A stretch of 53,405 nucleotides of DNA, counting the filler, from Jimgerdemannia flammicorona (Eukaryota): assembly GCA_003990765.1 (NCBI GenBank). It is 3 parts of 3 records of this genome, joined end to end, with 100 filler letters (N's around TTAATTAATTAA, not from the genome) between each part and the next. Parts side by side here need not be neighbours in the genome. Positions count along the whole stretch, not along the records: positions 1 to 17,736 come from RBNJ01002431.1; 2 more parts are not named here. One strand, given 5' to 3'. How positions within the stretch are numbered: position 1 is the stretch's first letter; every line of letters starts with the position of its first letter. Position numbers and translations under genes: made by a program. Under the pieces are notes generated by a model. The model searched no databases, was not told where the DNA came from, and saw nothing but the letters and a program-made list of their open reading frames with translations. Shown in pieces: positions 3,274 to 53,302 of this stretch.

Positions 3274-4853
3274 TGTTATATAATAGTCACTGAGTCCTTC
3301 AAATATATCAGATTCTCTTCAAGGTGTATCTCTTAGACTAACTCAAGTTTGTTATAAGCAAGTTCTTATTAGAGTGCCTTTCTAGGTCTTATAGTCTTCA
3401 AACTTCTTATCTTTAAACTGTCTTGTTATCTCTTAGATTACTTGTAAGGAATTATGTGTAAGTGAATCAGAACTGACTTTATTTTAGAGGAAATAAGAGA
3501 GCTATTTATACAAAATATAATTCAATAGTTGCTAAGATATAAAGCTAAATATAAATTCCAATAACTAAAATAAAATACCAGAACAGGGAAAACTGCTAAG
3601 TTCCAGTGTTGGTACTGATGATTGTATAGGTTCAGAATGCTGATATAATTTTGGTAATATAGGAAAATGGTGCTGGAATAATTCAGTGTCACATCAGAAT
3701 GCTGGTGGTAGAATAGCTGTTATATAGGAAAAGAGTACTGGTATAATTCAGTATAACCAAGAGACTTAGAGCAGAATGTTCAAGACTATAGAGGCTTTAT
3801 CCTCATCAGAGGTCAGGATGTCTTCAAAGAAGATGAGGTCTATGAATGTTTTGTCCATCTTATTGTCATCATCATTACATAGGTCATGTGTTTTGTATAT
3901 GTCATACAGGATTATATCATCACCAATAACATCATCATGTTCAGTAGCAAAATTGGAAACAAGGAGGTCTGGAGCTCTCCAGTCTATAAGGTTCTCTTCT
4001 ACAAAATAGGGGACAAATGTGGGGTCTTGGAGAGGTCTAACCTGAATACTTGTGTCTTGGAATATTGAGATCAATCCTTGTAGAAATTGGTCTAAGTTGT
4101 CCTGGAGGATGGGATGCCAGAAGTCTTCTACTTTATCACTATTGAGGGTGATAGTGGACTGGGCTTCTGTAGCCACCCTGGCTTCTAGTGCATCAATACA
4201 GTGGGCTAATAGATCTCCGAAATCTGAGACTCTAATATACTCTAAGTTGGGGATTGACCATGGTACATGCCTGAAGATCTGGTGAATCTTTTTAGTTATC
4301 CTTATCTCATATATATCCATGGGAGTAATATCTTGTAACTCTTGAGGGCTGGCCTGTGGGAACTTCTGATAGAGGAGGTTTCTTATTTTATACTCCTGCC
4401 ATATTTGGAGGTATTTGGTAGCAATAGTGATCCTTGTTTCCATTTTATAGCAGTAGAGGATATAATGATAAGGGTCACTAGTACCCAGGTTGACACTAAG
4501 AGTCCTTCTTGAGTAGGTCCTTATGGCTCTCTGATGTCTTAGAACATCCTTTCTTTAACTAAGATACCTTGGTGATTTCTTGACCTTGAGGTTTGGTAGA
4601 TAGCAGGCATTTTGTTTGTGGTAAGTCTTTGAGCTATTTTGGAATTGGTGGGTCTTGTTGAGTTGCTACTACTATGGTTTCTTAATCCTTCTTTTATATT
4701 CCTCAAGATACTTATACTGTGGTCACAATGACTCACAGTTGGTCATCATTGCTCATCTCATATACCATATGATCTTCTTGTGCTCTGATCTGGTAACTTG
4801 TAAGGAAAGGCTGTCTCTTGTGCTAATGTCATCATTTTGGGATTACTGTTACA
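3274..4853 (-). repeat. 3' LTR of family A element (1580 bp)
   Basis: Direct repeat of 10558-12139. The minus strand starts TGTAACAG and ends TATAACA. It is preceded on the minus strand by the purine tract AGAAGAAAAA (4854-4863). Confidence 0.93.
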
Positions 4854-5162
4854 TTTTTCTTCTAAATAAGAATCTTCTTGAGTATCCTTATTCATTGGTC
4901 TAGTCCTGAAAAAAATTGCTAATCCCATAACCTCTGGCAAGGGGTCGAAAAGTGATGTTTATGGGCTGGATCTTCTCTATGTATTTTGATATAATGGTGA
5001 AGAGTTGCTTCCTTTATATAGAGCAAGGGCCTGATTCTGATCTTGATCAATCAGTTGATGGTTTGAACTTCTCTGGCTTTAAAAGTCTTATAGATGAGTA
5101 GTTACTAGTGCTATATCTCTTAGAGAATAGTCCAGACAGATAGCCTACTAGTTATGGGACAT
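3766..5162 (-). pseudogene. Family A third ORF (about 465 codons, unknown function), from just after pol into the 3' LTR
   Basis: ATG at 5162 (caacATGtcc) lies 4 nt after the last pol-frame stop. It is in the same frame as ORFs 4758..4940 and 4539..4736. A 1-nt deletion near 4530 relative to the other LTR copies shifts into ORF 3766..4443. Internal stops are TAA/TAG/TGA, each one transition away from CAA/CAG/CGA/TGG. Confidence 0.7.
4854..4863 (-). promoter_or_regulatory. Polypurine tract of family A
   Basis: AGAAGAAAAA immediately precedes the TG of the 3' LTR on the minus strand. Confidence 0.65.
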
Positions 5163-7932
5163 GTTGTTATGATTTGCAGACTAGAACCTCATGGACAGTC
5201 ATCACATTTTGCTTCTCTTATATAGATTCATAGTACTTCTTGAGTCTGTTTCTATGTACCATAGTAGGCAGTATAGTCTCTGAGATTTTTCTAAGCCAAA
5301 AAGTAGTTCTCTTGATATCTTATATATAGAAGAGTTCTCCTCATTTGGGCTCCAGTTTTCACAACCATGAGGCTTCTACCATATTTTGATACAGTAGGAC
5401 CTTTTCTCCAATTTGGATGGGTTCTAGGGTCTTGTGATTCTTTTTCACATTCTTCCTTATCAGCACTTGTGACTTGATGATATAATTATCAGCCTTCTTT
5501 CTAATTTGGTGTAGCCTCTGGATTTCTGCATCAATCCATCTCCAAGTTAGGTCTAGATTTGTGGCTGAGGTTCCATCAGAATCTTCTTCTCTGAAGAGCA
5601 ATTCTCTTAGGGTAAAGTGTATACTCTGTGACTATATATCTAGTAGGACAGAGAGGGCAGTTGGGAGGTAGTTATCCCAATTCTCATATATCTCTAAGAT
5701 CTTCACCAGGATGTTCTTGAGGGTCTTGTTGGTTCTATCTGTCTGTCCATTTCCTTGAGGGTAGTATATGGTGGTCTTGATATACTGGATCTTGTATTTC
5801 TAATACATTATCTCATGAAATCTATTGACAAATTCTGTACTATAGTCTATAGTGATTTGCTTTGATGTCTTGTAGTGGCAGATGATTTCTCAGTATAGGA
5901 AGTCAGCTATAGAGAGGGCATTGACTTCTTGTAATGCTCCTGCTTCTATCTATTTGGTAAAGAGGTCTACAATAACTATAATATAGTAGTTTCCTGATAG
6001 TATTACTGGTAGTGGTCCAATGATATTCATTGCGATATAGTGGAAGGAGATAGGCTCAATTCTTGATGATCTAGGTGCCTGGTCTTACTGATCTTATTTC
6101 TATTTTTGGCACTTGTCACACCCTTTGACAAATTGGTATAGGTCTTCTTCCATTTTGGGCCACTATATAATTCTTCTTACCTTGTCATATGTATTGATTT
6201 CTTCTAGGTATCCTTACTTGTATACTTCTTTCATTACTTAATACTTCTTATATTTGGGTATTACTAGCTTTCCTCCTTTTCTAAGTGTAGTATTGCCTAG
6301 TTCAAACTGTTTCCAAGTCTGATTGATGATAGTGATTGTCCAGAGTTTGAGGTATATAGTTGGGCATCTTCTGCTACCTAAGGTAGCTGATTAATCCATA
6401 GTATAACTTCTTATTCATATTGAATAGTCTTGATGGAGGTGTTTTGAGATGTCCTTGAGAGTATATCAGCATTGGTGTTGGTTCTTTCTGAGTAGTGCTT
6501 AATAGTACAGTCATACTCTTATAGCCTGTAGATCCATCTGGTATATATTTCTTTAGGGTTCAGAGTGTAGAACAGCCAGGCAAGAGTAGAATGGTCTGTT
6601 TGAATAGTGAAGTGTTTTTTCAGCTAGATAGTAGTAGAACTTGTCTACTGTCCAAACTACTGCTAAGCATTCAAGCTTGCATGACTCGTAGTTCTGTTCT
6701 ACTCCATGGATACCTTGGCTTGCATAAGAGATGATATATTCATATCCATCTTTCTTTTGAGCTAGGACTGCTCTAAGTCCTATAGTACTTGCATCTGTCT
6801 GCAGGATGAACTCTAGGTTCCAATCTGGTCTTCTGAGGATAGGTGCCTGAGTCAACCTAGTCTTGAGTTCATTGAAGGTTTCTTGGTATTCTTTGGTCCA
6901 TTCAAATTTGATCTCCTTCTTGAGTAGCTCATAGATAGGTGCTGTAATGTTAGAGTATCCTTTGATGAATCTTCTGTAGTAGCTGGCCAGTTCAAGGAAG
7001 GCATGGACTTCTGTGGTTGTTCTGGATCTTGGATAGGCTGCAATAGCCTTGATCTTCATAGGGTCTGTATGGATTCCAGTCTGGTTGATGAGGTGTCCTA
7101 GGTAGGCGATTTCCTGAGCTGCAAACTTGCATTTCTTAGGCTTGATGTAGAGGCCATATTCCTTGAGCTTCTTGAGGGCTAGCTGTATATAGTTGATATG
7201 TTCCTATATAGTGTTGCTGAAGATGATTACATTATCAACATAGACAAAGAGCCATTTTCCAATCTCGTTGCTGAAGACTCTGTTCATTATTTGCTGAAAA
7301 CTTACTGAGACATTGCACATTCCAAATGGCATTTGCAGATAGATATAGGTGGCATCAGGTGTGATGAAGGCTGATTTCTCACTGGCATCTTGAGTGAGAC
7401 CAATCTGATGGAAGCCTAAGAATAGATCTAAGGTAGTGTAGTATTTGGCTTTGCTTCTAAGGGTGGTAAGGATTTCTTGAATATTTGGCAAGGGCTGCCT
7501 ATCCTTCTTAGTGATTGCATTGAGCTTTCTGTAGTCAATGCAGAGTCTTGGTACAAACTCTCCAGACTTGCTTCCTTTCTTTGAGGCAAGGACAATGGAT
7601 GAAGCCCAGGGACTGATAGCTTGCTTGATGATTCTAGCTTCTTCCATTTCCTTAAGTTCTGCTCACAGTCATTCTCTGTAGGCAGGTGATATGGGTCTAG
7701 CTTTCTGGTAGATGGACTTGGTATCACTAGTGTCAACTTCATAATAGTACTTGGGTTTTTAATTGTAGATATCTCCAAAGTCTGTAGTAAGTACTTCTTC
7801 ATTCTGGTACAGGATCTTGAGAAGTTGTTCTTCTAGGAGAAAGTTTTCTCCAATGGTATATGTGTGCTTATTCTGGTCCTTGTCTTTCTTGTGCTCAAGT
7901 TCAGTAATCTTGATGGCAGTATAGGCTCCTCT

Positions 7933-8343
7933 TCCAGTAGATCTAAAGCCTTGTTCTCCTCTCTTGGTCTTGATGAGTTTGATGGCTTTCATGATCTTGG
8001 GCTTCTTGATTTCATAGATCAGCATCTGGCCAATCCTGTCATACTTCTTGACTTTAAATGAGGTGGTGGGGTTGTGATTCCTGACTATGAGGAAGATCTT
8101 GCCAGTGTAATCAGGGTCAATTACTCCTCCTTCAACTAAGATTTTGCTTTTGGCCAGACTACTCCTGGTCTTGATAATTCTGGCATAGTTCTCTGGCAGC
8201 TTGACTCCAATTCTGGTGCCGAGTGGGGTGGTGGTCTGTGGTTCGAGGATAGCATCTTGAATGCTGGTAAGATCTATTCCTATGGTTCCTTCAGTCTTGT
8301 ATTCTGAGATCTTGGCTTTGGGGTAAAACTTCTTGACCTTGAG
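7933..8343 (-). pseudogene. Trimeric dUTPase domain in family A pol, between protease and RT
   Basis: Translation LKVKKFYPKAKI..GIDL..KTRSSL..GGVIDPDYTGKI..DRIGQM..RGEQGFRSTG contains all five dUTPase motifs. Confidence 0.92.
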
Positions 8344-10539
8344 GGTAATGTCTGATTCTTGTTCCTCCTCATCATCACTGTCAGCTTGAAGCTCAGAGGG
8401 CTGGTCATCTTCTTCAGCTTTCCTTTTTGCTTCAGCAGCTTCTTGCTCATACTTCTGTTGGCAGATTTTCCTGACTTCACTGATACAGGATCAGCAGTCA
8501 TTCAGGTGTTTAGAGCAGTACATCCTAGTACCATGGGGATATCATCCTTGAGGGGCATAGCTATCAATGATCTTGTTATACCACTACTCATCTATGAGCT
8601 TGGGTGTCTTGTTCTTGTTCTTGTTCACTAAGTGCATGAAGACTTCTGTGTCCTCTTCATCTTCTTCCTCTATGTCTGGTAGAACTCCTTTGTGGATATT
8701 GATAGAGACTCATACCTTTCTTCCTTTATAGTTGATCTGCATTTTCTAGGCATTGAGGTCAATGATGGCCTTGGCCTTGTAATGCCATTGGTTGCTAATG
8801 AGGATATTATAGTTAGTGGCACTTGTAACAATCACATCTACTGGAATGGTAGCTCCTCCTATCTTGATAGGGGTTTCTCAGATTTTGCTAAGGAGGATAG
8901 CTTGTATATCATCTGCTGTAATATAGACTATCTTGGTGGACTCTTCAATGTCCCAACCTAGACAGTCAATTGCCTTCTTGCTCATAAGGCATTCTCCAGC
9001 ACCAGTATCCAATAATGGTATCAAAGATATAATCTTCAATCTGACATAGAGTATAGGCTGATGTCTTGTGCTGGTCTTCAGATTCTTCACCTGAGTTTTC
9101 AGATTCTTCCTATGCATTGTGAGCTTCTATAATCTTGTACTCTTGATTCTTAGCATTAGTTACAAGTCCTACTCTCAACTACTGTCTGAAGGCAGGAACT
9201 TTGGCTAGTTGTCCAAAAGTAGCATTGATCTTCTGTTCCTTAAGATCTTTGTAGATATTATACTAATGGATCTTAGTCTTATACAGCTTCTATTTCTTCT
9301 TACTTTCACTTTCTCCTGAGACTGGAGTAGTGCCTTCAATGATTTGATGGGCAGCTTTATCTAACTCCATGTCTTGATCAATCTCCTTAAATTGGATCTT
9401 ACTTTGAATAGTGACAGTTGGGGTCTTCTTTGGTCTTCTAACTGGCTTGCTGTTACTCTTCTTGTCATAGAGCTTGGACTGGGTTCTGATACCTTCAGTA
9501 GCAGGGTAGAATTCAAGCTCCTTATAGTATTCTTCATCATCAGTGTCACCAATCTCCTTGATGACTACTGTATTGGTTTGTTCTCTAGTTCTGCTAGCAT
9601 TACTTGGTTGGACTTTGTATCTTATTTCAGTCATACAATTTTTTATATAGTGGCCTTCTTCTTTATATCTAAAGTATGTAATATTGTATTCTTCTATAAT
9701 AGCTGAAAATCTCTATACTGGTCTCCTGTTGGTGCTTCAGACTTCTCTAACAACATCACCAAGGTGCACAGTCATCTTAGCAAACTGCTTGGCAAGTTCT
9801 TCCACTGGGTCAGCTTTGGTTGCCTTGGGGGTAGGTGGGGATGATTGTCTGTTTATAACTGTAGCAGATATGATACTGGTTGGCTTTGATAGCTCTATCT
9901 TAATGCCAGTTATTTTCTCTATTGAGTATTTGGTAAGGTGTCTGGTAGTCTGATATCTCTGTGCAAAGACCACTTTCTAATTAAGAATCAGTGCAGCTGG
10001 GGTAGATCAGATTGCTAGAGCAATTTCAGAGTAAATTTCTTTGAGGAAGATTGAATCTACTATTTGTTCCTTGAGGGCATTATCATAGCCAGCCAAGACA
10101 ATCTGGTGGCAGATTTGGGTATAGAATGAGTTGGAATCTTCACTGAGTCTCTGGCAGATAGTATTAAGTTGATCCTTGAGAGCTTGCTTGATTTCTTTGG
10201 TATAGTATGTTGTTCTGAGAAAGGCCTTCATATTGGCAAGTTTGGCTACACCATTATTAGCAATAGTGGTTGTATTAAACTTGTCTCTGGCAGGCTCTCT
10301 AAGGCTGACTAGTAGAAGGGCCAATTGTGCATTCACACCAAGAACTCATATGGTAGTAAATTGTTCAAAGTCTTCAATAAAGGTCAGGATTGACTCTTCA
10401 GTAGTATATCCATAGAATATGGAGAGATATATTTCCATCTTATCTTGAATTCTTGCAGGGGTGACTCTTATAGTCAGATAGTTGTTATGGTAGTTGTTCA
10501 TTTTTCAGCTTGAAAGTGAGGAATTCATCTTGAATCACC

Positions 10540-10554
10540 AGCCAATAGGCACCA
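10540..10554 (-). promoter_or_regulatory. Primer-binding site of family A
   Basis: TGGTGCCTATTGG lies 3 nt after the 5' LTR end. The homologous copy reads TGGTGCCCATTG at 43342. The primer tRNA cannot be assigned confidently because of transition decay. Confidence 0.7.
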
Positions 10555-10557
10555 AGT

Positions 10558-12139
10558 TATCATATAGTAGTTGTTGAGTCCTTCAAATATATCAGATTCT
10601 CTTCAAGATATATCTCTTAGACTAACTCAAGTTTGTTATAAGTAAGTTCTTATTGAAGTACCTTCCCAAGGTCTTATAGTCCTCAAACTTCTTATCTTTA
10701 AACTGTCTTGTTATTTCTTAGATTGCTTATAAGAGATTGTATATAAGTAAACTAGAACTGACTTTATTTCAGAAAAAATAAGAGGGGTATTTATACAAAA
10801 TATAATTCAATAGTTGCTAAGATATAAAGCTAAATATAAATTCTAATAACTAAAATAAAATTCCAGGACAGAAAAAACTGCTAAGTTCCAGTATCAGTAC
10901 TAATGGTTACACAGATTCAGAATACTGATATAATTTCAGTAATACAGGAAAATAGTGCTGGAATAATTTAGTATCACATCAGAATGCTAGTAGTAGAACA
11001 GCTGTTATATAGGAAAAGAGTACTGATATAATTCAATGTAACCAAAGAACTTAGAGTAGAATATTCAAAACCATAAGGACTTCATCCTCATCAGAGGTCA
11101 GGATGTCTTCAAAAGAGATGAGGTCCATGAATGTTTTGTCTGTCTCATTGTTGTTATTATCATATAAGTCGCACATTTTACATATATTGCATGAGATGAC
11201 ATCATTGCCAATATTGTCATCACATTTAGCAGTGAAATCAGGAACAAGGAGGTCTGGAGCTCTTCAGTCTATGAGGTTCTCTTCCATAAAATAGGGGACA
11301 AATGTGGGGTCTTGGGGAGGTCTAACCTGGATACTTGGACCTTGGAATACTGAGATCAATTCTTGTAGAAATTGGTCTAGGTTGTCCTGGAGGATGGGAT
11401 GCCAGAAGTCTTCTACTTTATTACTATTGAGGGTAATAGTGGACTGGGCTTCTGTAGCCACTCTGGCTTCTAGTGCATTGATACAGTGGGCTGACAGATC
11501 TCTGAAATCTAAGACTCTAATATACTTCAAGTTGAGAATTGACTATGGTGCATGCCTGAAGATCTGGTGAATCTTTTTAGCTGTCCTTATCTCATATATA
11601 TCCATAGAAGTGGCATCTTGTAACTCTTGAGGACTGGCCTGTGGGAACTCCTGGCAGAGGAGGTTTCTTATTTCATACTCCTATCATATTTAGAGATATT
11701 CGGTAGCAATGGTGATCCTTATTTCCATTTCATAGCAGTAGAGAATATAATGATAAGGGTCACTAGTACCCAGGTTGACACTAGGAGTCCTTCTTGAGCA
11801 GGTCCTCATGGCTCTTCTGATGTCTTGGAACATCCTTTCTTCAACTGAGATACCTTGGTGGTTCCTTAACCTTGAGGTTTGGTGAGCAGTAGGCATTCCA
11901 TTTATGGTAAGTCTTTGAGCTATTTTGGAATTGGTTGGTTTTGTTGAGTTACTGCTACTGTGGTTCCTTGATCCTTCTTTTATATTTCTCAAGATACCCA
12001 TACTGTGGTCACAATGACTCATAGTTGGTCATCATTGCTCATCTCATATACTATATGATCTTCTTATACTCTGATCTGGTGGCTTGTAAGGAAAGGCTGT
12101 CTCTTGTACTGATGTCATCATTCTTAGGTCACTATTACA
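10558..12139 (-). repeat. 5' LTR of family A element (1582 bp)
   Basis: Direct repeat of 3274-4853. Starts TGTAATAG. The terminal CA has decayed to TA. Followed by the PBS. Confidence 0.93.
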
Positions 12140-22427: not shown

Positions 22428-23413
22428 GATGGGTTTTGGTCGGAGAATTTATCCAGCGATTGACAAACCTGTGGCTGAATCCCACGTTATTTGCACGTGG
22501 CATTGGCGTACCCCACGTGGTGGTTGAAATTGCCAAATGTGGGATAGTTGTTTTGTCGTGTTACACCTTTCTCTTCGCTCATGCAGCGGAACCCTTTATT
22601 TTTGCTCTACCACAATCAATTTCTTTTGTTACCATGTAATATATAGACAATACCCCTTGCATGAAAAAATGGCGACATTCACCTCACTATTTCACCTTTT
22701 TCCCAACCAAAATTCCCTATGCCCTTCAATCTTGATAGATGGTTTGTCAAGTTCTGTTGATTTAACATCAAATATTAATTAGAAGTTCAGATAACATAGA
22801 ATTATCACACTAAATTAGAAGTGTTTCAAAAAATTGCAATTATCATATGCTATATATCAATTATGAGATGATATTGGTAAAAGTAAGAGGCAGTGTAGAT
22901 GGAGTTACAATTGTGAGATATCTTGAAAGTCATGTAATGATGAAAATGTAAAAAAGAAATATATTTAGTTAAATATCAATAATAATAATTATAAAAGACA
23001 TATGTTTACTAATAATAAGAGATTAATTATCTTTTGTTTAGATATTATAAAGATATAAAATAAATATCTTCATATGTAATTAGAATATACTGTTACAAAA
23101 AAAAAAAAAAAAAAAAAAAAAACTTTTGAAATCACCTCGCTTTGGCTCTCCTTTCGCCCACGGTATAACCGTTTTGCTTTTCATGTTTGTCCATCGTTCC
23201 CTCTTCCTGCGGTTTCAACATTGGTGTTCTTCGTTCTATACCATAGCGCGGTGGCGTCACAGCAGGAAACTGGTTAGCCTGAATCACATGATTCGGCTGT
23301 ATCACATGATGCAGCTAACGAAGGTCACGCCAATAACGCCAAAAGGGAAGTCACATGCGTCTATAAAATACGAGCGCCGTGCCATTTCACCAACAAACCG
23401 CCACCACTCAACC

Positions 23414-24184
23414 ATGGTTTCCTATCTCCAAAACCAAACATCCGCCTTCCTTCAGTCCCAACTCGGTTACTGTTACCCCATCCTCTCCTCCACCGCCTCC
23501 GACCCACATTGCAACGTCCTTTTCGTCTCCAAACTCCTCGGCAACATCGTCCTTCTCACTGGAACAATCCTGAAAATCCCGCAAATATCGACCTACCTTT
23601 CCTCGAGAAGCGTGGCCGGCCTGTCGCTACCTGCGCTGCTCCTGGAAATACATGGATTTGTCATCGGCGCTGTCTACAACGTCCGTGTCAAGAATCCGTT
23701 TAGTACGTATGGGGAGGGTGTGAGTCTGTTGCTTCAGGACGTGATTATTCTTGGACTCTATGGACTGTATGCGAAGCAGATGGGGCTGGTATCCGGCTCT
23801 CTATTCGGCTTTATGTCACTCGGTATAGGGTTATACAACCAAGCCTCAACATCCACCCTGCAAGCTCTCATGGGTATCTGCATCCCGGTCTTCGCACTGA
23901 GCGGCATCACACAGTTACTCCTGAACTATAGACAAAAGCATCTTGGCAACGCATCAAGCGTAACGGCCATTTTTGGTTGGCTGATGGGTTCGTGTAGGGT
24001 TTTCACCACGTTTGTGGAAGTGGAGGATAGGGTTTTGTTGTTTGGGAGTATTTTGGGGGTATGTATTTCGACGGTGGGGTTAGTGCAGATGGTTTTGTAT
24101 GGAGATAATACGAAGAAATACCTAGAGGGGGTGAAAAGAAAGGCGAAGGAGGAGCTCAGGAGTGTGGGCAAGAAGGTGGAGTAA
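23414..24184 (+). CDS. PQ-loop membrane protein, MPDU1/Lec35 (mannose-P-dolichol utilization defect 1)-like; intronless
   Basis: ORF 23126..24184 with likely start ATG at 23414 (accATGg, TATA-like CTATAAAA at 23361). Motifs LKIPQI..SRSVAGLS, YN..KNPFSTYGE, NYRQKHLG and RVFTT..EV.D, with multiple hydrophobic helices. Confidence 0.85.
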   Translation: MVSYLQNQTSAFLQSQLGYCYPILSSTASDPHCNVLFVSKLLGNIVLLTGTILKIPQISTYLSSRSVAGLSLPALLLEIHGFVIGAVYNVRVKNPFSTYGEGVSLLLQDVIILGLYGLYAKQMGLVSGSLFGFMSLGIGLYNQASTSTLQALMGICIPVFALSGITQLLLNYRQKHLGNASSVTAIFGWLMGSCRVFTTFVEVEDRVLLFGSILGVCISTVGLVQMVLYGDNTKKYLEGVKRKAKEELRSVGKKVE

Positions 24185-24439: not shown

Positions 24440-24705
24440 CATCACCCAACACCTCCACGTACCATTCAAAAGTTCTTCCTCCAGTTACTCATATCATGGT
24501 TTCCATCCTTCAACAATACCAACTCCTTCACCACACCATACAAAAGCCTTGAACAGCTATCAGGCAACACTAAATCATCTTCTGCTCTTTCTCGATCTCT
24601 TTACAGCCTCCGCGACACCATAAGTCTGACTGGCATGGTGACGACTCCCAAAACACTCTCGGGTTCCAACGCCGCCGCATCAATAACCACAGCAGTAGTA
24701 GGAAG
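24440..24705 (-). pseudogene. Alpha/beta-hydrolase fragment (frameshifted)
   Basis: Minus-strand pieces in different frames: AVVIDAAALEPESVLGVVT / ASQTYGVAEAV / AEDDLVLP..KELVLLKDGNHD. These resemble the post-nucleophile helix, acid and catalytic-His loop. Confidence 0.5.
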
Positions 24706-25091
24706 TTAGGGAACCATAGGGGGTTTCAAAGGTTAGTTCGGTCCAGCCTTCCGAGGTAGGTTTGGAGGAGGTGGGTTGTGGGTCTGTGGCAAAGGAGGAG
24801 GAGGAGGATAGTGGGTCTGGTAAACGGGGCATGGCTATAGATTATTGACATCAAATTGGAAAGTATGGGCAGCAGCACAATCGAAGGCACGCACTGCCAG
24901 GATGCAAAAAACACTATGTACAGCTCATCGAATCGAATTTTTTGCGCTCAACGTGATTTCTCCAGGGAGCAGGCCAGTATTGGCACAGCTCTGCACGGCT
25001 ACTATATTTTTGAAATGTTAAACATCTAATATAAATTTAAAATCATTATACAAAAATAAATAATTTATTTAATAACACATTATCAAATACA

Positions 25092-28000
25092 TTTTTTTTT
25101 TTTTTTTTTTTTTATAGTCACTTGAACTCCTCTTTATTACCTCACTTCTATAAATAATAATACAATTTCACCCACATCCCTTCAACCAATACCCCTTGGA
25201 TCTCCCTCACTACCCTCTATCCCTTCTTAATGGAGGATAACCCAGTCACCCACTATTTGAATCTTACCCCCACTTTTCCAGTAAATACAATTCACCAAAC
25301 TCTGTCAGCTCTCCCACCCAGTCTCCACCCTCTCCACCAGCTATTCAAAATGTCCAGTAATAGTCATTCCCATCATACCACCCTAGCCCCAACTTCAACC
25401 AGCTAACCTTCCTTAAATACATGTAACCAATGCTCAGCCAGTCTAACCCAAATTGCCAGAACCCCACCCAGGATCAGCCACTCATCTCCAACCTCTCTCA
25501 CTAGCCTTTAGTAGAGGCCTCCCTATCTCCTCCCTTCTCTCTCCACCAGGGCTTGCAGCCCTAACTGGCCCACAATGCAATGCCAAAAATCTCCTAGGAC
25601 ATCACACTCACTAAGCCAATGTTCAGGCATTTAAACCACTCCCCCCTCTTGTCCAACATTCATACATTCCTCACACTCAAATGTACCATCTGCCACCAAG
25701 TACCCAGACTGATAGTTCAACATCACATTCTGCTATAGAAACTACCACCATACTACCCAGAACTTGGGGAGAAGCCATTATATTACCTACTTGCTCCAAG
25801 GCCAAAGACTATTCTAGTCCCACTCCTCACCAATCCCCACCCTCTGTCATACTTCAGGCCATAGGTCTCTCCCTAAGCCCCACATACAATCCATACTATC
25901 ATTAAGCTGAAAATCCTCCACCAAAGTACTACCCAGTAGTAGTCTGTCTCATCTCCATATCTGTAGACCCCAATCTTCCTCTCCCTTATCACCTTACCAC
26001 CAAAGTCTAATTCTCCTTGCACCATCTACCACTCTCTACCAAAATCCCTTATACTGCATCCTTTTGCTCCCATCCAGGGCCACCATCACAAACAGATCAC
26101 CAGATGCACCACAGGGGGAATACTGGGCCTCCCACACCTACTACATAAGAGGTACCCACTCCTAGCCCTATAACTTACTTACTCTCTTCAGCCACTATGC
26201 TCTCAAACAATGAAGACATTTGGTAAAGTCCACCAAGCCTAGCCCATCTTTGTCCACAGGTAGGGTCAGAACTTCTCATCCTATCTGACTTCACTGCCCA
26301 GTCTAGATCCATGATTTTGCTATCTTCAGAAGTTGCCTAACTACCTATGCTGGAAAGTCTAGATAATATCTCACATACTATAGCTTTGGCAGCCAATATA
26401 CATTTAGCACCATCACTCTTCCTGCCAAAGATATATACTGACCACCTCACTATAAGAGCACATTCTTCTATACTAGGAGCTGCTGTTCCCACTAAGTATA
26501 GGGTAGGAGAGACCCATATACTGAGAAGTAGATCTCTAGATACCAAACTGGATCTCCTGCTAGTACTACTATTCCAATCATGTCACCACCAACTATTCTA
26601 CTGCCTAGCACCAGAGTCTTGCATTTATGCCAGTTGAGTTTAGTACCTAAACCTCTCTCATACTATTCCACAAACCTCCATAATTCCTCCACATCCTCTA
26701 ATAAACCCAGTCTAATCACCATATTATCCGCAAAGGCTCCTACTTTCCAATTAATTCTCAGAATATCCAAACCTCCAATTCAATGTCAGATCTTGTCTAA
26801 TAGAGGCTCCAAGGAAAGAATATATAAGATGAGTAACAAAGGATCACCTTGTGGCACCCCACAACCAAGCAGAAAAGTTATACCCCTGTGTCTATTGACT
26901 ACCAATACTGCCTGACTATCTTCCAAGAGACTGATTAACACCCTTCTGAACCCTGGGGGAACACCCACCCATTTCAGCACTCTCTTTAGCCAAATCTTCC
27001 TCACTCTATCATATGCCTTTTCCTGATCCAGAAATATTAATCTGCCATCAACCCCAGCAGCCTGAGCTCTTTCAATTACTCTATAAACTCAGGCCATCTC
27101 ATCTTGGATCAACTGACCACTAACAAACCCTCTTTGCTCTACTCCTAACACTTGCTGAGCGATTCTCTGCAGTCTCATCACCAAGATCTTTGTCACCAGC
27201 TTATGGTTTATGTCAAGGAGTATGATCAGTTGCCAGTTCTTCTAATCTTCCCTTCTTCTCTTATTCTTATAGAGCAAGGAGACCAACTCTAGGCACTGGC
27301 CTCCAATCCAAGTTCCAGACTGAAGAACCTCACTATACATTACTGTCATCTCCTCCAATATCACCTCTACCCTAGCCATCTTTTTCCAAAAATCCCAGAG
27401 AAGTTCATCCTCTCCCAGAGCCATCTCCTTGCTTGTCAAAGCTAAAATCTTGCAAATCTCCTCTCCTATCACTAGGTCCCCCAGAGTCTCCAGACCCATT
27501 GCTGGGTCTGAATGCTAATCCTCCAACTGCCTTTCAATATTCGAGGCATTCTCACTCCCTTTATACTCACTCTATAACTTCTCCCAGCAGGTTCTTAGCA
27601 ATTCCAGAATCACTAGAGTCTCCACCACCATCTCTCCATCCTCATTCAAAAGACCATCCCACCACTGTTTAGTTCTCCTCACTTATAGCAATTACAATAA
27701 AAACCTAGTGGTCCTTTCTTTCTTCTCTAACCCTTGCTACCTTAGTCTTACCACCATCTCTATCAGTATAGCCTCTTCCTCCATTTGTATCACTTTCTTA
27801 AGCTCCTCAACTTCTCTTTGAATCCACACAATATGCCAGTCAGCTGTCCCCTAATTCTCTAGTGCCCCCACCCATCTCTCCAGAAGTACCTCCAATCTTT
27901 GTAAAGCCCAAAGCACTCTCTTCTACTACTGAATACTCCTTCCTTTCCCTGCCTCCCTCCAGTACCCCTGAGCACTTGATTTTAGCCTCCTCTAGTGATC

Positions 28001-30790
28001 CCCAATCTCCAGACTCTGTTCCTGCCACCAATCAATTTTTCCAATAACCTCCACCTCTCAATCTGCCTATAAAGTATCATCCTCCAATAAAGAGGAATTC
28101 AGTTACCAATGTTTAGGCCCATCCCCACTTCCTCCAAACCTCCCCCCCCCTAGCAAACCTCAGTGATCTGACCATGGATACCAAACTACCTCCAGTGTGG
28201 CCCAGATGTCCACTCTCCAGCACTCTGCCATCAATATCCAGTTAATACTAGAGCCCAACCCTGCCACTCAGTGAGTATAGATTTAATGATTCTTCCAAAA
28301 CTGTCTCTCTGAATCCACCAAAGAACTCAACCTCTCCATCTCCATCCAATCATCCAACCCACCACTTCTGCTCCTCAATTCTCTCCTGCCATCAGTCCTA
28401 TCTACTATATTATCCTATACTATGTTGAAATCACTCCCTAGGCAGTTGATCCCTACCTCACCCAAGATACTGGCCTCTCTCAAGTTTCTGATTCAATCTA
28501 CCTATTACCTCCTCTCTGCTGGACAATAATATGACCCAACAGTTAAAGGGCTCTATCTAGGCCTCTTCCACACCCCCCACACCAACTGACTCCCCCAATG
28601 TCCAATATCACTAATATCCCCCATCCCTTTTCAAACTAGGATACCTACTCACTCAGTCTATACTACTGCCCTCCCCCATTCTCTAGTCCAATCCTGTAAG
28701 TCCACATTCACTTCATAATATACATCTTACAGTAAGAAGAGATCTGCATCCAATCTCCAGAGCCAACCAAATATGTACTTTCACTGAGCTGCCCCCCTCA
28801 ACCCATTTACATTCAAAGAAAATATTCTAGTTGTACTGTTCATATTGAATAATATTTGAATTTGAGAACCCAGCCTAATATTCCATACTCATCTCATCTC
28901 CAGCTAGAGCCAAGCACTGCTCTGCTTCCAGGTCACCCTCTACCACAGCCTGAGCATCCAATGCCTCTAAGATTTCTTAACATTCTGCCCCATCCACTAC
29001 TTCTATCTCTATCCAATAATCTGCACAGACTACTCTCTACTTCTCCAACCCCTTCCTTGATTCCTACAAGAAAGCTACCTGTTCATTCACAATCACTTGA
29101 AGTTTCTCCTCCCTCTGATTATCTACTTGATATTCTACTGACTCTAAGAGTACTACTAGGATCTTATTCCTAACCTTCCTTGGTACCTCCTCACCATGAA
29201 GAATTTTCTTCCAATACCTCTCTTTTATAATCTGGAAGTCCTCTCCCTCCAGTTCCTTAGCTATCACCTCCTCCAGAGTCTTCCACAGCTACTTCTCCTC
29301 ATCTACCAATTCTGCCACACCCTGGGTGACCCAGTCAACCCCCACTGCTGGGTCCACCAAAGTGCTCCTCCTCACCAACTCATCCCACTCCTCTTTCAGT
29401 ATATTCAGTAGTTCCTTCTCACCTCCTGCTCCATCTGAGACACTATACTGAGGGTGTACTTCCTTGTCCATTTCTGTATCTGCCTCCATGCTGCCCAGAC
29501 CCTTCTCCCTTGGTCCACCCTGGGCCCCACCTCAGGCCATCCCATATTCCTCTGCCCAGGCACTCTCTCACAATCCTACTCCCCCTTCCCCTGCACTGCT
29601 AGTAGCCTCTTTACCACTCAACTTCTCCAGCAGCTCCCTCTGGATTTGCCTTCCCTGTATCTTCTCCCAAGTCATCTGATCCATCTGGATTCTCTTTCCA
29701 TCTACAATTTCCACCACTGTCTTGGCTTCATACTTCTTCTAAACCAATCTCCTTCTCTCAACCACTCTTGCCAGATCCTCAAGAGCTTTCGGCAAATCCT
29801 CCTTTTCTTCCTGAGTTCCTTTCATCCACACAACCTTGCACTTTACCAATCTCCACTTCAAAGTCACTGACCAGTCCCTCATCTTCCCCATGTTCTCCTT
29901 TCCAGCCAGCCTTACCCAGATGTTGACATCACCAGTCTGAAGCTCTGTACTCTCTCAGACTTTGAACCCAATATCCACAATCTCCCCATACTCCTTGACC
30001 ACCTCTACAATCAACTCCCTAGCCCTCTCCTTCAACACTGTCAGAAGATCCAATACTATCAACTGCACTACTTTGGGGTCCCAGTACATGCACCTGGCCA
30101 TAGGGACCACCACCCTGCCCACTATCACCCCTTTCTCCATGGCTACCAACAATGCCACCTCTTCCTCGATCCCAACCTCAACTCCTTCTTTCCTCTTCAA
30201 AAACTTCACCAAAGCTGCCCCCTTTGCCTCCTGCACTACCAGCCCCAAGATCATCCTTATAGTTACTGGTAAGCCCTGGAAACACAATGTAATAGTGAAT
30301 TCTGACCTAGATTTCTTGAGTAATGGTGCTGACACTATACTCGTCACACTATCTGCCAGGTCCCTGGGCCTTGTGCCCCCCCCCCCTATTCTGAACTGCC
30401 AACCACTGTCATATCTGGATTTTTTTCCAGATCTCCAGTCACAGCTCCATCAGCAGTCATATCTTCAGCCCCTACTCTCCCCCCTCCCCTACTGCTCAAC
30501 CCTCCCATGGGGGCCTCTCTCTATCTCTCAACAGCAGCCATCAACGCCTTCCCCAGGCCCAGCCAACTATCCAGACCAGAAGCCATTCTCCTTATCTTAA
30601 CTTTGTTTACAAAGATTGTCCTCTCCCCTCTCCATTGCCTCAATCTACCTCTTTCTCCTCCACCAGCACTATGGCCAGCCATAGAAGGCTCTGGCATTCC
30701 TAAACCATCCCCTCTCCTCCTCTCTACATTTTGTCAGTCAAAGGCACTACTGCTCCTCTGGTCTGCACACTCACCAGTATATTTATTTCT
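25092..30790 (-). mobile_element. Non-LTR retrotransposon (L1/Tx1-like LINE), near full length, decayed
   Basis: Poly-T at 25092-25113 is the poly-A tail. APE endonuclease from ATG 28843 (FSLNVNGL, GSDFN, PWSDH). RT motifs FLDQEKAYDRV ~27000-27035, GVPQGDPL ~26840-26862 and FADN ~26725. ORF1 relics at 29000-30600. The 5' end is approximate. Confidence 0.88.
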
Positions 30791-31593
30791 ATCCATATTA
30801 CTAGTTGCCTTTTACTAAAAATGCTGTAGAAAGTGTTATCTAAGTCTTGTATCACTTGAATATTACCAGTGAAAGGTGATTATCAAATATATATCTTAAT
30901 ATATTTTGTAGTTATTTCTCTACTACTTTATTTTCTAAATATATATATTTTTATTTAAATATTATAGTTAAGACTTGAAATAAATAGTTTCTTTTTATCT
31001 ATACTTATAATTAATAGATATAATATAATAATTTATTAATTATTTCAATAAATTAAAAATTAAATTAATTAATTTGTTTTAAATTATATTAATATTTAAT
31101 AAGAATTTATTAAGATACCAATCTCTTTAACTTAATATAAGTATATAAGTATATGATATCTGTCTATATAATTTTATAGATATTATTAATTACTATAATA
31201 ATAATATTTAAGTATATAATTAAGAAGTTTAACAAAAATAACTATAAAGTATAAATAATCTATATAATGAATATTTTTTAAAAATATAGTTTAAAAAGAG
31301 TACTTGAAGTCTAAATTAGATATATAATATTATAAAGATAAAAAAAAGATAAAAAAGCTTTTATAGAGATTATCTTTACTTTATTAAATTCACAAGTATA
31401 AATTATAAAGTATAGAATATATTCAGAAAATATCGTTTAGAGTAATATATCAAATTAGCTTTATCTCAAGATATAGTTATTTAATATATAAGAGTATATA
31501 ATAAGAAGAATATTTGCAATTATATAAGTTATATAAATAATCTCATTAATCAGATTAATATACTTATTAGAAAAGATTAAAGATAAAGATAAG

Positions 31594-35571: not shown

Positions 35572-35671
35572 NNNNNNNNNNNNNNNNNNNNNNNNNNNNN
35601 NNNNNNNNNNNNNNNTTAATTAATTAANNNNNNNNNNNNNNNNNNNNNNNNNNNNNNNNNNNNNNNNNNNN
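35572..35671. other. Artificial contig linker (N44-TTAATTAATTAA-N44)
   Basis: Same 100-nt all-frame-stop spacer (core 35616-35627). Confidence 0.97.
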
Positions 35672-36734
35672 TCCTTGCTGGTAAGGAGCACTTTAGGATT
35701 GCTTGTAATCAACTTCAGATACACTTCAAAGCTTGTTTTAGTTCGTTCAATATAAGAACGAGCAATGTTTATGGCCAGAGGGAAACAGTCGAGCTCTTCT
35801 ACAATGTGTTGTGCATTGACCATTGCATCAGCAGATAGAGTTCGTGAACCAAGCAGTAGAGAGAGGGCCTGGTCATTACTCATCTTGTCGACTTCGATTA
35901 CAGTGGCCCATGAAGAAGAAACATTATTGCGAGTTGTCACGACGACGTCTCCACCTGTTGCTGGAATATAACCGTCTACATCATTGGCATCGTCCATATT
36001 ATCCAAAAGCAGCAGCCAGCCTGTCTTCATTTCAAACCATTCGCGAATTAAATTAGCCATGACATCGCCATCGTCGGATCCTTTGGCCTCAGTAGGTATC
36101 CCAAGTTTCTTTGCCAAACTTCTGAAGGCATCGAGAGTCGCCTTCCTTCCATCAACGCGCAGCCAGAAGACGTAATGATAGGTCTCGCGGCACTGGTAAC
36201 AAAATTGCAGCATGGTTTCCGTTTTCCCCATGCCACCAATGCCTTTGAGGACTACCGGTGCGCGTGCGACTTTCGATTGGTTTCCATTGATTGCTGCCAG
36301 GATCTTTTTCATGATATCCTCTCGTCCTACGAACCGGTTTGTGGGCTTGAGCGGAACTAGGAACATTTTCTTATTTTCAACGATGGTGTTATCGATTGGT
36401 GTGGAGATGTATTGATTGAGGGTACCTGGCATTGCAAAATGAAATAGTTCAGTTATTAGTTTATCCGCTGTCAAAATTTGCACACATATACGCACTCGGA
36501 TTATTCTATCTCCTTACCATAGTTCACCGTTCGACCAGATTCGAAAGTGGTATTATTGAGTCCGAGAAACGCTGGTCCCCCGTGTGTGCTAACAGCATCA
36601 ACGTTGTTTGTCACGTTTTGCACCAAACCTTCAGCGGAGTCTCCTTGCTCGTTGGTAGTCGGCAACTGGCTGCTGATCATGCTGGCAAACAGAGTTCCGG
36701 TGGTGATGTTTGCATTATTGCTTTAGGATGACAT
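35672..36734 (-). CDS. NB-ARC (STAND) NLR-like protein, 5' part, truncated by contig end; short N-terminal extension on a separate exon
   Basis: FVGRED, P-loop GIGGMGKT, YVFWL, Walker B WLLLLDNMD, VVVTTR and LDCFPLAI. Exon 36518-36734 joins in frame to 36425 via GT-AG intron 36426-36517. The first ATG (36734) is followed by TAA at codon 4. The second in-frame ATG is at 36680. Confidence 0.85.
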
Positions 36735-41813: not shown

Positions 41814-43770
41814 TATAACAGTGACCCCTGAATGATGACATCAGTATAGGAGACAGCCTATCTTTACAAGCCACCAGATCAGAGCACAAGAAGATCATAT
41901 GGCATACAAGATGAGCAATGATGACCAACTGTGATTCATTGTGACCACAGTATGGGTATCTTGAGGAATATAAAAGAAGGATCAAGGAACTGCAGTAGCA
42001 GCAACCAATAAGACCCACCAATCCCAAAATAGCTCAAAGACTTACCATAAACAAAATATCTGTTGCTCACCAAACCTCAAGGTCAAGGAACTACCAAGGC
42101 ACCTCAGTTGAAGAAAGGATGTTCCAAGACATCAGAAGAGCCATGAGGATCTACTCAAGAAGGACTCCTAGTGTCAACCTGGGTACTGGTGACCCTTATC
42201 ATTATATTCTCTACTACTGTAAAATGGAAACAAGGATCACTATTGCTACTGAATGCCTCCAAATATGGCAGGAGTACAAAATAGGAAACCTCTTCTGCCA
42301 GGAGTTTCCACAGGCCAGTACTCAAGAGCTACAAGATGCCACTCCCATAGATATATGCAAAACAAGGACAGCTAAGAAGATCTATCAGATCTTCAGGCAT
42401 GCACTATGGTTGATCTTCAACTTGGAGTATGTTAGAGTCTCAGATTTCAGAGACCTGTCAGCCTGCCATATCAATGTACTAGAAGCTAGGGTGGCTACAG
42501 AAGCCCAGTCCACTATCACCCTTGATAGTGATGAAGTAGAAGACTTCTGGCATCCCATCCTCCAGAACAACCTAGACCAATTCCTACAAGAATTGATCTC
42601 AGTATTCCAAGACCCAAGCATCCAGGTTAGACCTCCTCAAGACCCCACATTTGTCCCCTATTTTGTGGAAGAGAACCTCATAGACTAGAGAGCCCCAGAC
42701 CTCCTTGTTCCCACTACTACCAAATGTGATGATGTCATTGGTGATGACATCATCTCGTATGACATATGTGAGACATGCAAAATACATGAAACATATAACC
42801 TATGTGATGATGACAAATTCACAGACCTCATTTTCTTCAAAGACATCCTGACCTCTAATGAGGATGAAGCCTCTATAGTCTTGAACATTCTGCTCTAAAG
42901 TCCTTTGGTGACACTGAATTATTCCAGCACCATTTTCCTATACCACCAAAATTATACCAGCATCCTGAACCTATACAACCATCAGTGCTAACTTTGGAAC
43001 TTAGTAGTTTTTCCTGTCCTGGTATTTTATTTTAGTTATTGGAATTTATATTTAGCTTTATATCTTAGCAACTATTGAATTATATTTTGTATAAATATCT
43101 CTCTTATTTCCTTTGAAATAAAGTCAGTCCACTCAGTATACTCAGTACAATACACACAATTTCTTGCAAGCAGTCTAAGAGATAATAAGACAGTTTAAAG
43201 ATAAGAATTTTGAGGACTATAAGACCTTGGGAAGGCACTCCAATAAGAACTTGCTTATAACAAACTTGAGTTAGTCTAAGAGATACACCTTGAAGAGAAT
43301 CTGGCATATTTGAAGGACTCAGCAACCACTATATAACAACTTGGTGCCCATTGACTGGTGATTCAAGATGAATCCCTCACTTTCAAGCTGAAAAATGAAC
43401 AACCACTACAACAACTACTCTGACTACAAGAGTCACCCCTGCAAGAATTCAAGATAAGATAGAAATATATTCCTCCATATTCTATAGATATACTACTGAA
43501 GAGTTAATCCTGACCTTCATCAAAGACTTTGAACAATTTGCTGCTGTATAAGCTCTTAGTGTAGATGCAAAATTGGCCCTTCTACCAGTCAGCCTCAGAG
43601 GACCTGCCAGAGATAAGTTCAATACAGCTACTATTACTGATAATAGTGCAGCCAAACTTGCCAACTTGAAGGCCTTCTTCAGAATAATATACTATACTGA
43701 AGAGATCAAGTAAGCTCTCAAGGATAAACTCAATACTATCTGCTAGAAATTCAGTAAAGATCCCAACTGT
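41814..43770 (+). mobile_element. Third family-A copy: 5' LTR (41814-43338), PBS (43342) and start of gag, truncated
   Basis: Reverse complement of 10130-12139. It contains ORF 42119..42688, homologous to 3766..4443. The LTR ends TATAACA and is followed by ACT-TGGTGCCC. Confidence 0.92.
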
Positions 43771-51536: not shown

Positions 51537-53302
51537 ATGCCCAGAAAATTCCAAGCATAACAACTTGGTCTACGATGTCTTTGGGTGGATATGCACTGTA
51601 GTCCTCGACATCTTCTTCCTCGAGATCAGACCGCGCGGTGCGCACCGCATCCCGTTGAGGGACCCGTCATTTTCGTTGCTGCGCCCCATTCCAACCATGT
51701 GAGAGTTTGCTCCATGTCTGTCAAACACAAAGATTCACAGAATGGTTAGAGTGATTGTCGATATATACGTCTAAGCTGGTGTGGTGGTCTGACAGTAATG
51801 TGGCGCTCAGAATCGAAACAAGAGCCTACGTCGCAAGCGCTCCTTGCCAAGAGACCATACTTAACATCTTGATGGAATGGACGGCCGAGAAACACACCTT
51901 ACTGATTCCGTCATAACTCCTCAATCTCTAGTTCGTTGATGCCATGACCTTGATGCGAGAATGCCGCCACCGCGTCTCTTTCCTTATCACCGAGAAATCC
52001 ATGCACCAATGGGGCATCGGGTTCTTTACCAAAATGATCCACACCAGTGCGTATTTTGTGTTTTTGTTTTGTGAGTCTGTAGTTTTGATGGTACTTGGAG
52101 GAAAAAAGATACAAAATATTGGTGAAATTCGCTTGACGATGGTTTACATAAACCTTTCACGTCCACTAATTTTAACCCCCTTACCCCACTCCTATGCAGT
52201 CCCCGTCGTCCATCCCCAAGACCTCGCCAAGCCCGGCGTCGGCATGATCCAACTCTTGAACATCAAGACCGACCCCCTTCACATCACGGGTCTGAACATG
52301 TGCTTCACCACGCAGCTCCATGTGGGCGACTCGATCTCGCTCCCCAAGGGTCTTGGTTCCGCTGAGGTGACACAGATTGTCTCGGATACGGAGCTATTGA
52401 TAAAGAAGGAATTCAAGGAGCTCAGGGCCATCGAACTGCTCACCAGTGAGGAGGGCTGCCCCTTCAAGTGCCTGCCCCATGTCGACCAGGAATCCATCTA
52501 CAGGAGTGTTCACAAGACCCTCAATGAAGGGAACTGCATTGCCATCTTCCCCGAGGGTGGCTCCCGCGATCGCGCAGAAATGCTGCCGCTCAAGGCCGGT
52601 TTCACTGTCATGGCGCTATGCATGCGCATCCAGGGCTCGATGTGAAGATCGTTCCATGCGGGCTAAACTATTTCCATCCACACAAGTTCCACTCGTGTGC
52701 CGTAATCGAATTTGGTGCGCCTCGCTGGAGCTCGTTGAAAAGTTCAAGAATGGCAGGGCTGAAAAGCACGAGGTGTGAGGAAAGCTGCTGGACACTATCT
52801 ATAATGCCCTCAAAAGCGTTACTGTTAGGGCGTCGGACTATGAAACCCTTATGGTTAGTAGGGATTTGAAGAAAGGATCGTTATGATAGTGCGGGAAGGA
52901 TGCTATATAGGAAGCAGGAGGAAAGTGGTAGTGAGTGCTCATGAGATGCACCAATTCTATAATCATTGAACCCAATCACTAATAATCATATATATCTCCC
53001 GACTTCATCTAACCAGCTCATCCAAGCCGCCCGCCGCTTATACAAGCCCATGCATCGTAAGCTCCACATCTTGCAGGTTGTGGACTGAATTGGCGCTTCG
53101 TCTACGGCTACGATAAGTATAAGGAGGATCCCAGAGTGATGGAACTGCAGCAGAAAGTCCTAGCATACAACCAGCTCCAGAAGTACCGCGGCCTACGTGA
53201 TCACCAGGTCAACAAGACCTCCCTCGGTGGGCCCCGCGCATTCGGCCTGTTGTTATACCGCTTCGCTGTGCTAGTTGTGTGGGGATTACTGTCGTTCCCG
53301 AG
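51537..53302 (+). pseudogene. Glycerol-3-phosphate/DHAP acyltransferase (yeast Sct1/Gpt2 type), frameshifted; continues past window end
   Basis: Exons ~51537-51698, 51932-52047, 52200-52853 and 53016-53302. Motifs LDIFF.EIRPRG, GPVIFVAAPHSN-FVDA, IFPEGGS.DR, VKIVPCGLNYFHPHKF and QAARRLYKP. Frameshifts near 51540, 51655, 52620, 52725 and 53083. Confidence 0.85.

Follow-up and report, generated by a model that had tools for sequence, protein, structure and literature searches.

A probable accessory gene inside the long terminal repeats of a dUTPase-carrying Ty3/gypsy retrotransposon of Jimgerdemannia flammicorona

Introduction

Can the long terminal repeat (LTR) of a retrotransposon carry a protein-coding gene of its own? 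Retrotransposon LTRs are treated as non-coding control regions and are masked by annotation pipelines, and the complexity conferred by accessory genes is thought typical of vertebrate retroviruses. The question is raised by 53,405 nucleotides (nt) of Jimgerdemannia flammicorona DNA, filler included, made up of three parts of three records of GenBank assembly GCA_003990765.1 that are joined by 100 filler letters and need not be neighbours in the genome (hereafter, the window). The AT-rich left part of the window, within the positions taken from record RBNJ01002431.1 (1 to 17,736), holds on its minus strand a complete dUTPase-carrying Ty3/gypsy retrotransposon, and both LTRs of this element contain a long reading frame that we refer to as the LTR gene.

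An earlier reading of the same DNA, the original prediction, had proposed a third open reading frame (ORF) starting after pol and running through the polypurine tract (PPT) into most of the LTR, in a layout akin to nef or sag. In this work we delimit the LTR gene, assess the evidence for coding and weigh the explanations that compete for it. We conclude that the LTR gene very probably is, or was until recently, a protein-coding accessory gene, and that it is probably a genuine accessory gene, about 281 codons long, located wholly within the LTR.

Results

Extent of the reading frame

The window contains three copies of the LTR, two at the ends of the complete element and a third at the 5′ end of a truncated one, which we aligned with each other (alignment A1). 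The LTR gene spans nt 244-1088 of an LTR of about 1580 nt, nt 1086-1088 being its stop codon, and tblastn locates it inside the LTR in sense orientation (Table 1). The copies are open in complementary stretches (3766-4554, or 262 codons, 11690-12028, 11264-11542 and 41999-42688), which confirms an observation of the original prediction, and the longest stop-to-stop frames measure 262 codons in the 3′ LTR and 229 codons in the third copy. None of 1000 dinucleotide shuffles of each LTR reached the observed length, with shuffle maxima of 148 codons for the 3′ LTR and 201 codons for the third copy, and the frame is open far beyond chance.

The 262-residue translation of the 3′ LTR copy (P0001) has a full-length homologue (P0003), residues 1-271 of which align by tblastn to 11896-11054, to 42056-42895 and, in two pieces, to 4610-4530 and 4533-3769. 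Because tblastn places the full-length P0003 at these positions, we set the start codon 244 nt inside the LTR and the length of the gene at about 281 codons. In the 3′ LTR copy, codon 24 is a stop and 1 nt is deleted near codon 27 (A1 column 671), after which 262 codons are open.

Homologues and evidence for coding

A word-based search of a collection of 5.8 billion clusters with P0001 yielded six relatives, and a profile search run exhaustively over 1.84 billion representatives yielded five. Once cluster members are included, the family comprises 20 proteins (P0002-P0021) in about eight clusters, 29-79% identical to P0003 over the members aligned in A3, an alignment of 14 of the 20 relatives and two window copies. 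A3 omits the six shortest fragments (P0006, P0007, P0015, P0018, P0019 and P0021), two of which, P0006 and P0007, are included in alignment A2. All 20 proteins were called on contigs 0.5-4.8 kb long in JGI or ENA metagenomes, and their annotation never goes beyond "hypothetical protein".

In A3, invariant and near-invariant columns are grouped in blocks (e.g. AQSTI, NPDQFLQGLI and PYFVEENLIDWR) separated by variable linkers, and distant members show conservative amino-acid replacements. An initial MP, at the same aligned position, is common to all five N-terminally complete members (P0003, P0014, P0016, P0009 and P0010), and P0001-P0005 and P0008 end in LN(F/I)LL followed by a stop. Intact full-length ORFs are found in three subfamilies, with 271, 323 and 342 residues, that are mutually 41-55% identical. 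As judged from these searches and from the structure searches below, the family is an orphan, with no detectable relatives beyond its own members and no fold match.

A scan of metagenome DNA identified a single related locus, L001, and a scan of viral contigs identified none. L001 is a 1345-nt contig from a second LTR family that bears an intact 323-codon homologue, free of the mutations that affect the window copies (see below), about 50% identical to the window family at the protein level and with an acidic tail some 50 residues longer. Over a core of 185-189 codons, the ratio of non-synonymous to synonymous differences per site (pN/pS) between L001 and the three window copies is 0.32-0.34 in frame, against 0.93-1.05 and 1.41-1.48 in the shifted frames, and should be read as a bound rather than an estimate because synonymous sites are saturated (pS 0.72-0.75). 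Differences in the core distribute over codon positions as 61/40/93, and the DNA is 66% identical to that of L001 in the core versus 46-52% across the remaining aligned LTR. These comparisons, made with a single relative, indicate that the LTR gene is under purifying selection.

Decay of the window copies and abundance in soil metagenomes

Of the differences among the three LTR copies, 275 are transitions and 25 are transversions. C-to-T changes fall in CpA context in 63 of the 105 cases with a known following base, G-to-A changes fall in TpG context in 42 of 64 cases, and CpG is almost absent, a pattern that resembles repeat-induced point mutation (RIP). A stop in one copy corresponds to a sense codon in the others. 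RIP-like transitions, from C to T and from G to A, have inactivated all three gene copies in the window, and gag and pol are damaged just as much. In-frame stops amount to five in 282 codons for the 5′ copy, one in 281 for the third copy and one, plus the 1-nt deletion, in about 281 for the 3′ copy, compared with 29 in 1265 codons of pol and five in 404 codons of gag. Differences between the 5′ and 3′ LTRs are spread neutrally over codon positions (39/28/40); this even split is the decay expected after insertion, and comparisons within the window therefore cannot test selection.

Sequencing runs listed with the element comprise four DNA runs from soil metagenomes. Two soil-metagenome runs, belonging to two studies, contain thousands of contig pieces that are 80-99% like the element, and their contigs cover all 30 bins into which it was divided, LTR gene included, with lower cover at 3574-3869 and 10974-11269, probably corresponding to a variable tail and spacer. 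Where soil contigs and window disagree, most changes are from A or T in the window to G or C (among the differing letters listed, 40 of 1432). Because the soil contigs carry G or C where the window has A or T, the window copies are the mutated ones. The window as a whole alternates gene islands of 45-50% GC with repeat blocks of 23-30% GC, as do RIP-affected fungal genomes. RIP-like mutation, a gypsy element of the dUTPase type and the occurrence in soil would all suit a fungal host.

Signals in the LTR

A first TATA motif, TATA1, is identical in all three LTR copies and is also found in L001, 57 nt before the start codon of its homologue; this last match is less secure because the L001 contig begins exactly at the motif. 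The second motif, TATA2, which is presumed to be the promoter of the genomic RNA, and the AATAAA signal are both conserved in L001 at the aligned place, though the surrounding DNA barely aligns. A TATA box with AATAAA shortly after it is the usual mark of a U3/R junction, and the pair found here looks like such a junction with a short R. Because TATA2 and AATAAA lie downstream of the gene stop, the LTR gene would belong to U3, a placement that these motifs make quite probable. Each LTR, also a single one left over from an element, has its copy of the gene.

A segment of about 60 nt that follows the gene stop, between the gene and TATA2 (about 3640-3760 on the minus strand and its 5′ LTR counterpart), is present twice in tandem in the LTRs of the full element, but is not duplicated in the third LTR copy, which has it a single time (A1 columns 1446-1509). 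The duplication, for which there is no Tandem Repeats Finder (TRF) report, may be an enhancer-type repeat upstream of TATA2.

The conserved TATAAAAG 81 nt before the start codon could serve as a promoter of the gene itself, the mode of expression that we favor, although we give it slightly less than even chances. An mRNA of about 1.2 kb would in that case be contained, from start to end, within one LTR and use the poly(A) signal of that LTR. The gene might alternatively be expressed through a spliced subgenomic RNA from the 3′ LTR.

Predicted properties of the protein

The first 60 residues of P0003 have a net charge of +8. The tails of the family have net charges of -15 to -27 and contain 21-31% Asp plus Glu, in agreement with the acidic C-terminus noted earlier; they repeat hydrophobic-acidic motifs (DLISFED, DLINF, (V/I)LNF) and end in (V/I)LNF. 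Readings of the tail as a clathrin box or as dileucine signals were dropped, since neither is conserved across members. No hydrophobic segment was detected in five members (maximum 19-residue Kyte-Doolittle values of 0.47-0.97), and the earlier statement that the protein has no signal peptide or transmembrane segment and does not look like env is upheld. Two AlphaFold models, computed with P0003 or P0016 as first sequence, reached mean predicted local distance difference test (pLDDT) scores of 50.8 and 46.8, and both present helices that extend to about residue 185; the PYFVEENLIDWR block forms a small hairpin, and the tail is disordered. With low confidence, the protein may thus be depicted as a helical core, some 210 residues long, that is preceded by a basic N-terminus and followed by an acidic tail without order.

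Pfam returned no family for P0001, none for P0003 at E values up to 1, and among the 16 members of A3 three chance-level families only (best E = 0.056), none of them viral. A sequence profile search of PDB gave no hits at E up to 1, and a search of the ESM Atlas gave a best score of 0.83, under the usable level. In structure searches with the low-confidence models, Foldseek gave no hits against BFVD and PDB at E up to 0.001, and a wide search with VIA-align gave a best Z of 4.9, on a single long helix; because the models are of low confidence, these blank searches say little on the novelty of the fold. An origin of the gene as a duplicate of the element's gag was ruled out (hhalign probability 0.2%).

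The host element and other features of the window

The LTRs of the complete element are 87% identical (blastn). Their ends, set by eye at the termini TGTAAC...ATAACA, lie 4 nt beyond the blastn ranges (at 3274 and 10558), and the element is flanked by TTAT on both sides, a weak target-site duplication in that a 4-nt match is easily found in AT-rich DNA. Pfam identifies in one frame of pol, in this order, a protease, a dUTPase, a reverse transcriptase (RT), an RNase H, an integrase zinc domain and an integrase core (RVP_2, 516-608; RVT_1, 1005-1156; RT_RNaseH_2, 1221-1316; Integrase_H2C2, 1434-1489; rve, 1521-1592, apart from the dUTPase). This domain order, together with the LTR ends, the primer-binding site (PBS), the PPT and the flanks, assigns the element to Ty3/gypsy (Metaviridae), and the dUTPase domain in pol assigns it to the dUTPase-carrying gypsy elements. 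A Pfam scan found no chromodomain in the element, and the 365 nt from the pol stop to the 3′ LTR contain no long frame. On the plus strand, the third LTR copy continues at 43339-43768 into the PBS and some 430 nt of the gag leader; similarity ends at that point, where this element is truncated or interrupted.

Table 1. Positions in the window of the LTR gene, its surrounding signals and the components of the host element
Feature	Position	Strand	Remarks
LTR gene, 3′ LTR copy	3766..4610	minus	ATG at 4610-4608, stop at 3768-3766; from tblastn with P0003, translation and alignment
LTR gene, 5′ LTR copy	11051..11896	minus	282 codons with stop; ATG intact; 5 internal stops
LTR gene, third copy	42056..42898	plus	281 codons; ATA at start codon; 1 internal stop
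TATA1, TATAAAAG	4691..4698 (3′ LTR); 11977-11984 (5′ LTR)	minus	LTR nt 156; 81 nt before gene ATG
TATA2, GTATAAATA	3503..3511 (3′ LTR); 10788-10796 (5′ LTR)	minus	LTR nt 1343; 255 nt past gene stop
AATAAA, putative polyadenylation signal	3478..3483 (3′ LTR); 10763-10768 (5′ LTR)	minus	LTR nt 1371; 19 nt after TATA2
3′ LTR	3274..4853	minus	TG...CA ends by eye; blastn range 3278-4853
5′ LTR	10558..12139	minus	Ends by eye; blastn range 10562-12139
Third LTR copy	~41814..43338	plus	5′ LTR of truncated element; internal sequence to 43768
Primer-binding site	10540..10554	minus	Begins TGGTGCC; 3 nt past 5′ LTR; same sequence after third LTR copy
Polypurine tract, AGAAGAAAAA	4854..4863	minus	Adjoins 3′ LTR
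gag	9293..10504	minus	404 codons; 5 stops; decayed CCHC-like knuckle
pol	5218..9015	minus	1265 codons; 29 stops; terminal TAA at 5220-5218; Pfam hits
dUTPase domain (PF00692)	7759-8490	minus	E = 9.8e-25; between protease and RT
Proposed N-terminal extension	4611..5162	minus	Not coding; 9 stops in 184 codons

Elsewhere in the window, 24500-31500 on the minus strand holds a decayed non-LTR (LINE-like) retrotransposon, with an RT at about 26611-27241 (RVT_1, E = 2.6e-17) in a stop-filled frame; this stretch has a GC content of 43-46% and an extreme GC skew, which on the plus strand is -0.43 to -0.54. A 297-codon open frame at 35620-36513 on the minus strand, in AT-rich and repeat-like surroundings, has hits to NB-ARC and STAND NTPase domains (E = 1.3e-7) and may be what is left of a gene of NLR type. 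Genes of host type, encoding a PQ-loop membrane protein and an acyltransferase, are located in GC-rich blocks (23084-24184 and 51932-52645, both on the plus strand); an Atlas search with the PQ-loop ORF assigned it to Eukaryota and to no narrower group.

Discussion

Alternative explanations

The original prediction envisaged an uncharacterised protein of about 465 residues, translated from an ATG past pol and reaching through the PPT into the LTR in a nef-like overlap. The ATG at 5162-5160 is present, 4 nt past a pol-frame TAA; it shares the reading frame of the LTR (552 nt) and has an A at position -3, but a stop follows four codons later and nine stops interrupt the 184 codons from 5162 to 4611, compared with one to five in the gene itself, which is some 281 codons long. 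RIP-like mutation turns Gln, Arg and Trp codons into stops, and the window has a single copy of 4854-5162, so that the six stops therein have no cross-check against other copies; the other three fall within the LTR, where a TGA-TGA tandem is identical in all three copies. The frame of L001 is likewise closed, by a stop 20 codons before its ATG, all five N-terminally complete homologues begin inside the LTR, and no longer or fused relative came out of a search confined to longer proteins, although the search tool itself rates such a blank as weak evidence. Similarly, the single frame of 357 codons claimed for the 5′ LTR contains eight internal stops. We regard the longer model as largely refuted and very improbable: of the earlier proposal, the selected orphan ORF stands, at about 281 codons from an ATG inside the LTR, and its size does not. 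The LTR gene could also be thought to reside in R or the 5′ leader, as the first cistron of a full-length RNA transcribed from TATA1 as genomic promoter, with an R of more than 1 kb and a layout likened to ORF0 or ORF1 of the plant elements Retrosat2 and Ogre. TATA1 is conserved and well placed for this role, and plant elements with extra ORFs upstream of gag are described in excerpts of PMC3485330 and PMC7264820. This arrangement leaves aside the second conserved TATA box and the AATAAA 19 nt beyond it, both downstream of the gene, and transcripts would terminate in the 5′ LTR if an AATAAA lay inside a long R. Among LTR elements, an R that measures about 1.2 kb would be highly unusual, and we deem this layout improbable compared with a gene in U3.

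It may instead be argued that there is no gene, and that U3 contains conserved cis-regulatory DNA in which the open frame is incidental. Enhancers do reside in U3 regions, but conservation is specific to the frame, as measured by pN/pS, start and stop positions are common to homologues, no shuffle matched the length of the ORF and distant members differ by conservative amino-acid substitutions, which leaves this explanation with hardly any probability. A passenger gene, captured from a host whole or in part and without a role for the element, would account for a protein that has no retroelement-like domain, and excerpts of PMC7264820 report both that LTR retrotransposons do take up host sequences and that captured genes are found in one or few copies. 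Here the gene is found in all three LTR copies, in a second LTR family at about 50% protein identity and in more distant clusters, it bears the mark of purifying selection, and the search of 1.84 billion representatives returned no homologue of cellular type, all five hits being on contigs of at most 4.8 kb. We consider capture unlikely, and retain an accessory gene of the element, within U3, as the preferred interpretation.

Several aspects of the data weigh against this interpretation. The gene is known here from DNA sequence. The selection test compares one DNA relative with three mutated and non-independent window copies, at saturated synonymous sites. The relatives were called as genes on metagenome contigs that are short (0.5-4.8 kb) and whose context is visible for L001 alone, so that the association of the gene with LTRs rests on two families, and nothing upstream of TATA1 can be compared in L001, the contig of which starts at the motif. 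Both promoters, and the borders of U3, R and U5, were placed by motifs that lie in AT-rich DNA. The confidence of the AlphaFold models is low, and there is no family, solved structure or fold match, so that the function proposed below is devoid of homology support.

Implications of a probable gene within the LTR

By its composition, the protein could be a nuclear regulator that either promotes transcription of the element or protects the element from silencing, in which the acidic tail would act as an activation region; this is our best guess at the function, though we hold it to be less likely than not. The transactivator or anti-silencing factor suggested by the original prediction fits in the same way, by composition. 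A similar degree of doubt attaches to the more encompassing proposal that each LTR is a self-contained gene, with its own TATA box, a 281-codon ORF and a shared poly(A) signal, for a new transactivator or anti-silencing regulator. If true, this would be the first sag-like accessory gene embedded in an LTR outside vertebrate retroviruses, and the "complex" type of genome organisation would have arisen independently in a Ty3/gypsy retrotransposon. The gene would be copied twice per insertion, its dosage would climb with each insertion, and solo LTRs, the commonest relics of such elements, could still yield protein, in which case expression would outlast the element. The role of the protein could lie in activation, in escape from silencing or RIP, or in particle assembly, and any of these would constitute a new interaction between element and host. 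Since two soil metagenome studies contain the family in abundance, material for work on expression should exist.

Comparison with known systems

Extra ORFs of LTR retrotransposons are situated in the internal region, often in antisense, according to excerpts of PMC7264820, and excerpts of PMC7264820, PMC3485330 and PMC8365987 describe lineage-specific extra ORFs of obscure function that have no homologues outside the elements. The additional ORFs (aORFs) of plant elements, the ORF0 of Retrosat2/RIRE and the brtn gene of Boty, from Botrytis, resemble the LTR gene in being lineage-specific and devoid of homologues outside the elements, but in these excerpts they are internal, located from the 5′ LTR to gag or from pol to the 3′ LTR. 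Retrosat2 ORF0, upstream of gag-pol (PMC3485330), evolves faster than pol, as the LTR gene does. As described in the same group of excerpts, brtn (PMC8365987, PMC7264820), Grande gene23 and the RIRE2 ORF are antisense, whereas the LTR gene is sense. In being both sense and inside the LTR, the LTR gene differs from the internal-region classes (plant aORF-3S and aORF-3R, and brtn, the latter being set apart by its description).

Among fungal elements, an excerpt of PMC2864245 describes a dUTPase between protease and RT in PosPlaTy3-5, the arrangement of the element studied here, reports dUTPase-carrying gypsy elements from Postia, Phanerochaete and Tuber, and marks an "add. ORF" of obscure function in some fungal elements in a figure legend. 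For elements of the PosPlaTy3-5 type, this excerpt makes no mention of an ORF embedded in the LTR. In our searches of the open-access literature the term "LTR ORF" came up almost exclusively in papers on mouse mammary tumour virus (MMTV), and no LTR-embedded ORF of a retrotransposon was found described in open-access full text.

Retroviruses provide the closest parallels. The nef gene of HIV and SIV and the bel/bet genes of foamy viruses are, like the LTR gene, accessory genes at the 3′ end of the genome that make use of U3 sequence. They start upstream of the LTR and cross the PPT into U3, whereas the start of the LTR gene lies 244 nt into the LTR and stops close the frame that would cross the PPT. 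Retroviral and errantiviral env genes differ from it in that the LTR gene has no hydrophobic segment and is located inside the LTR rather than between pol and the 3′ LTR.

The layout of the LTR gene is otherwise best known from the superantigen gene, sag, of MMTV, an ORF of about 300 codons wholly within the U3 of an unusually long LTR (more than 1.3 kb). Like the LTR gene, sag lies upstream of the LTR TATA box, and a copy of it is consequently present in every LTR. Of the nef/sag-like layout suggested by the original prediction, the probable position in U3, shared with sag, is retained, and the nef-like crossing of the PPT is not. The Sag protein is a type II membrane glycoprotein, anchored in the membrane, while the LTR gene product has no membrane segment and no sequence relation to Sag in the Pfam and PDB profile searches, and the element that bears it has a non-vertebrate host and no env. 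With its ORF placed, in all probability, wholly in U3, the LTR gene is sag-like in layout, and stands outside the sag family by sequence, membrane topology and host.

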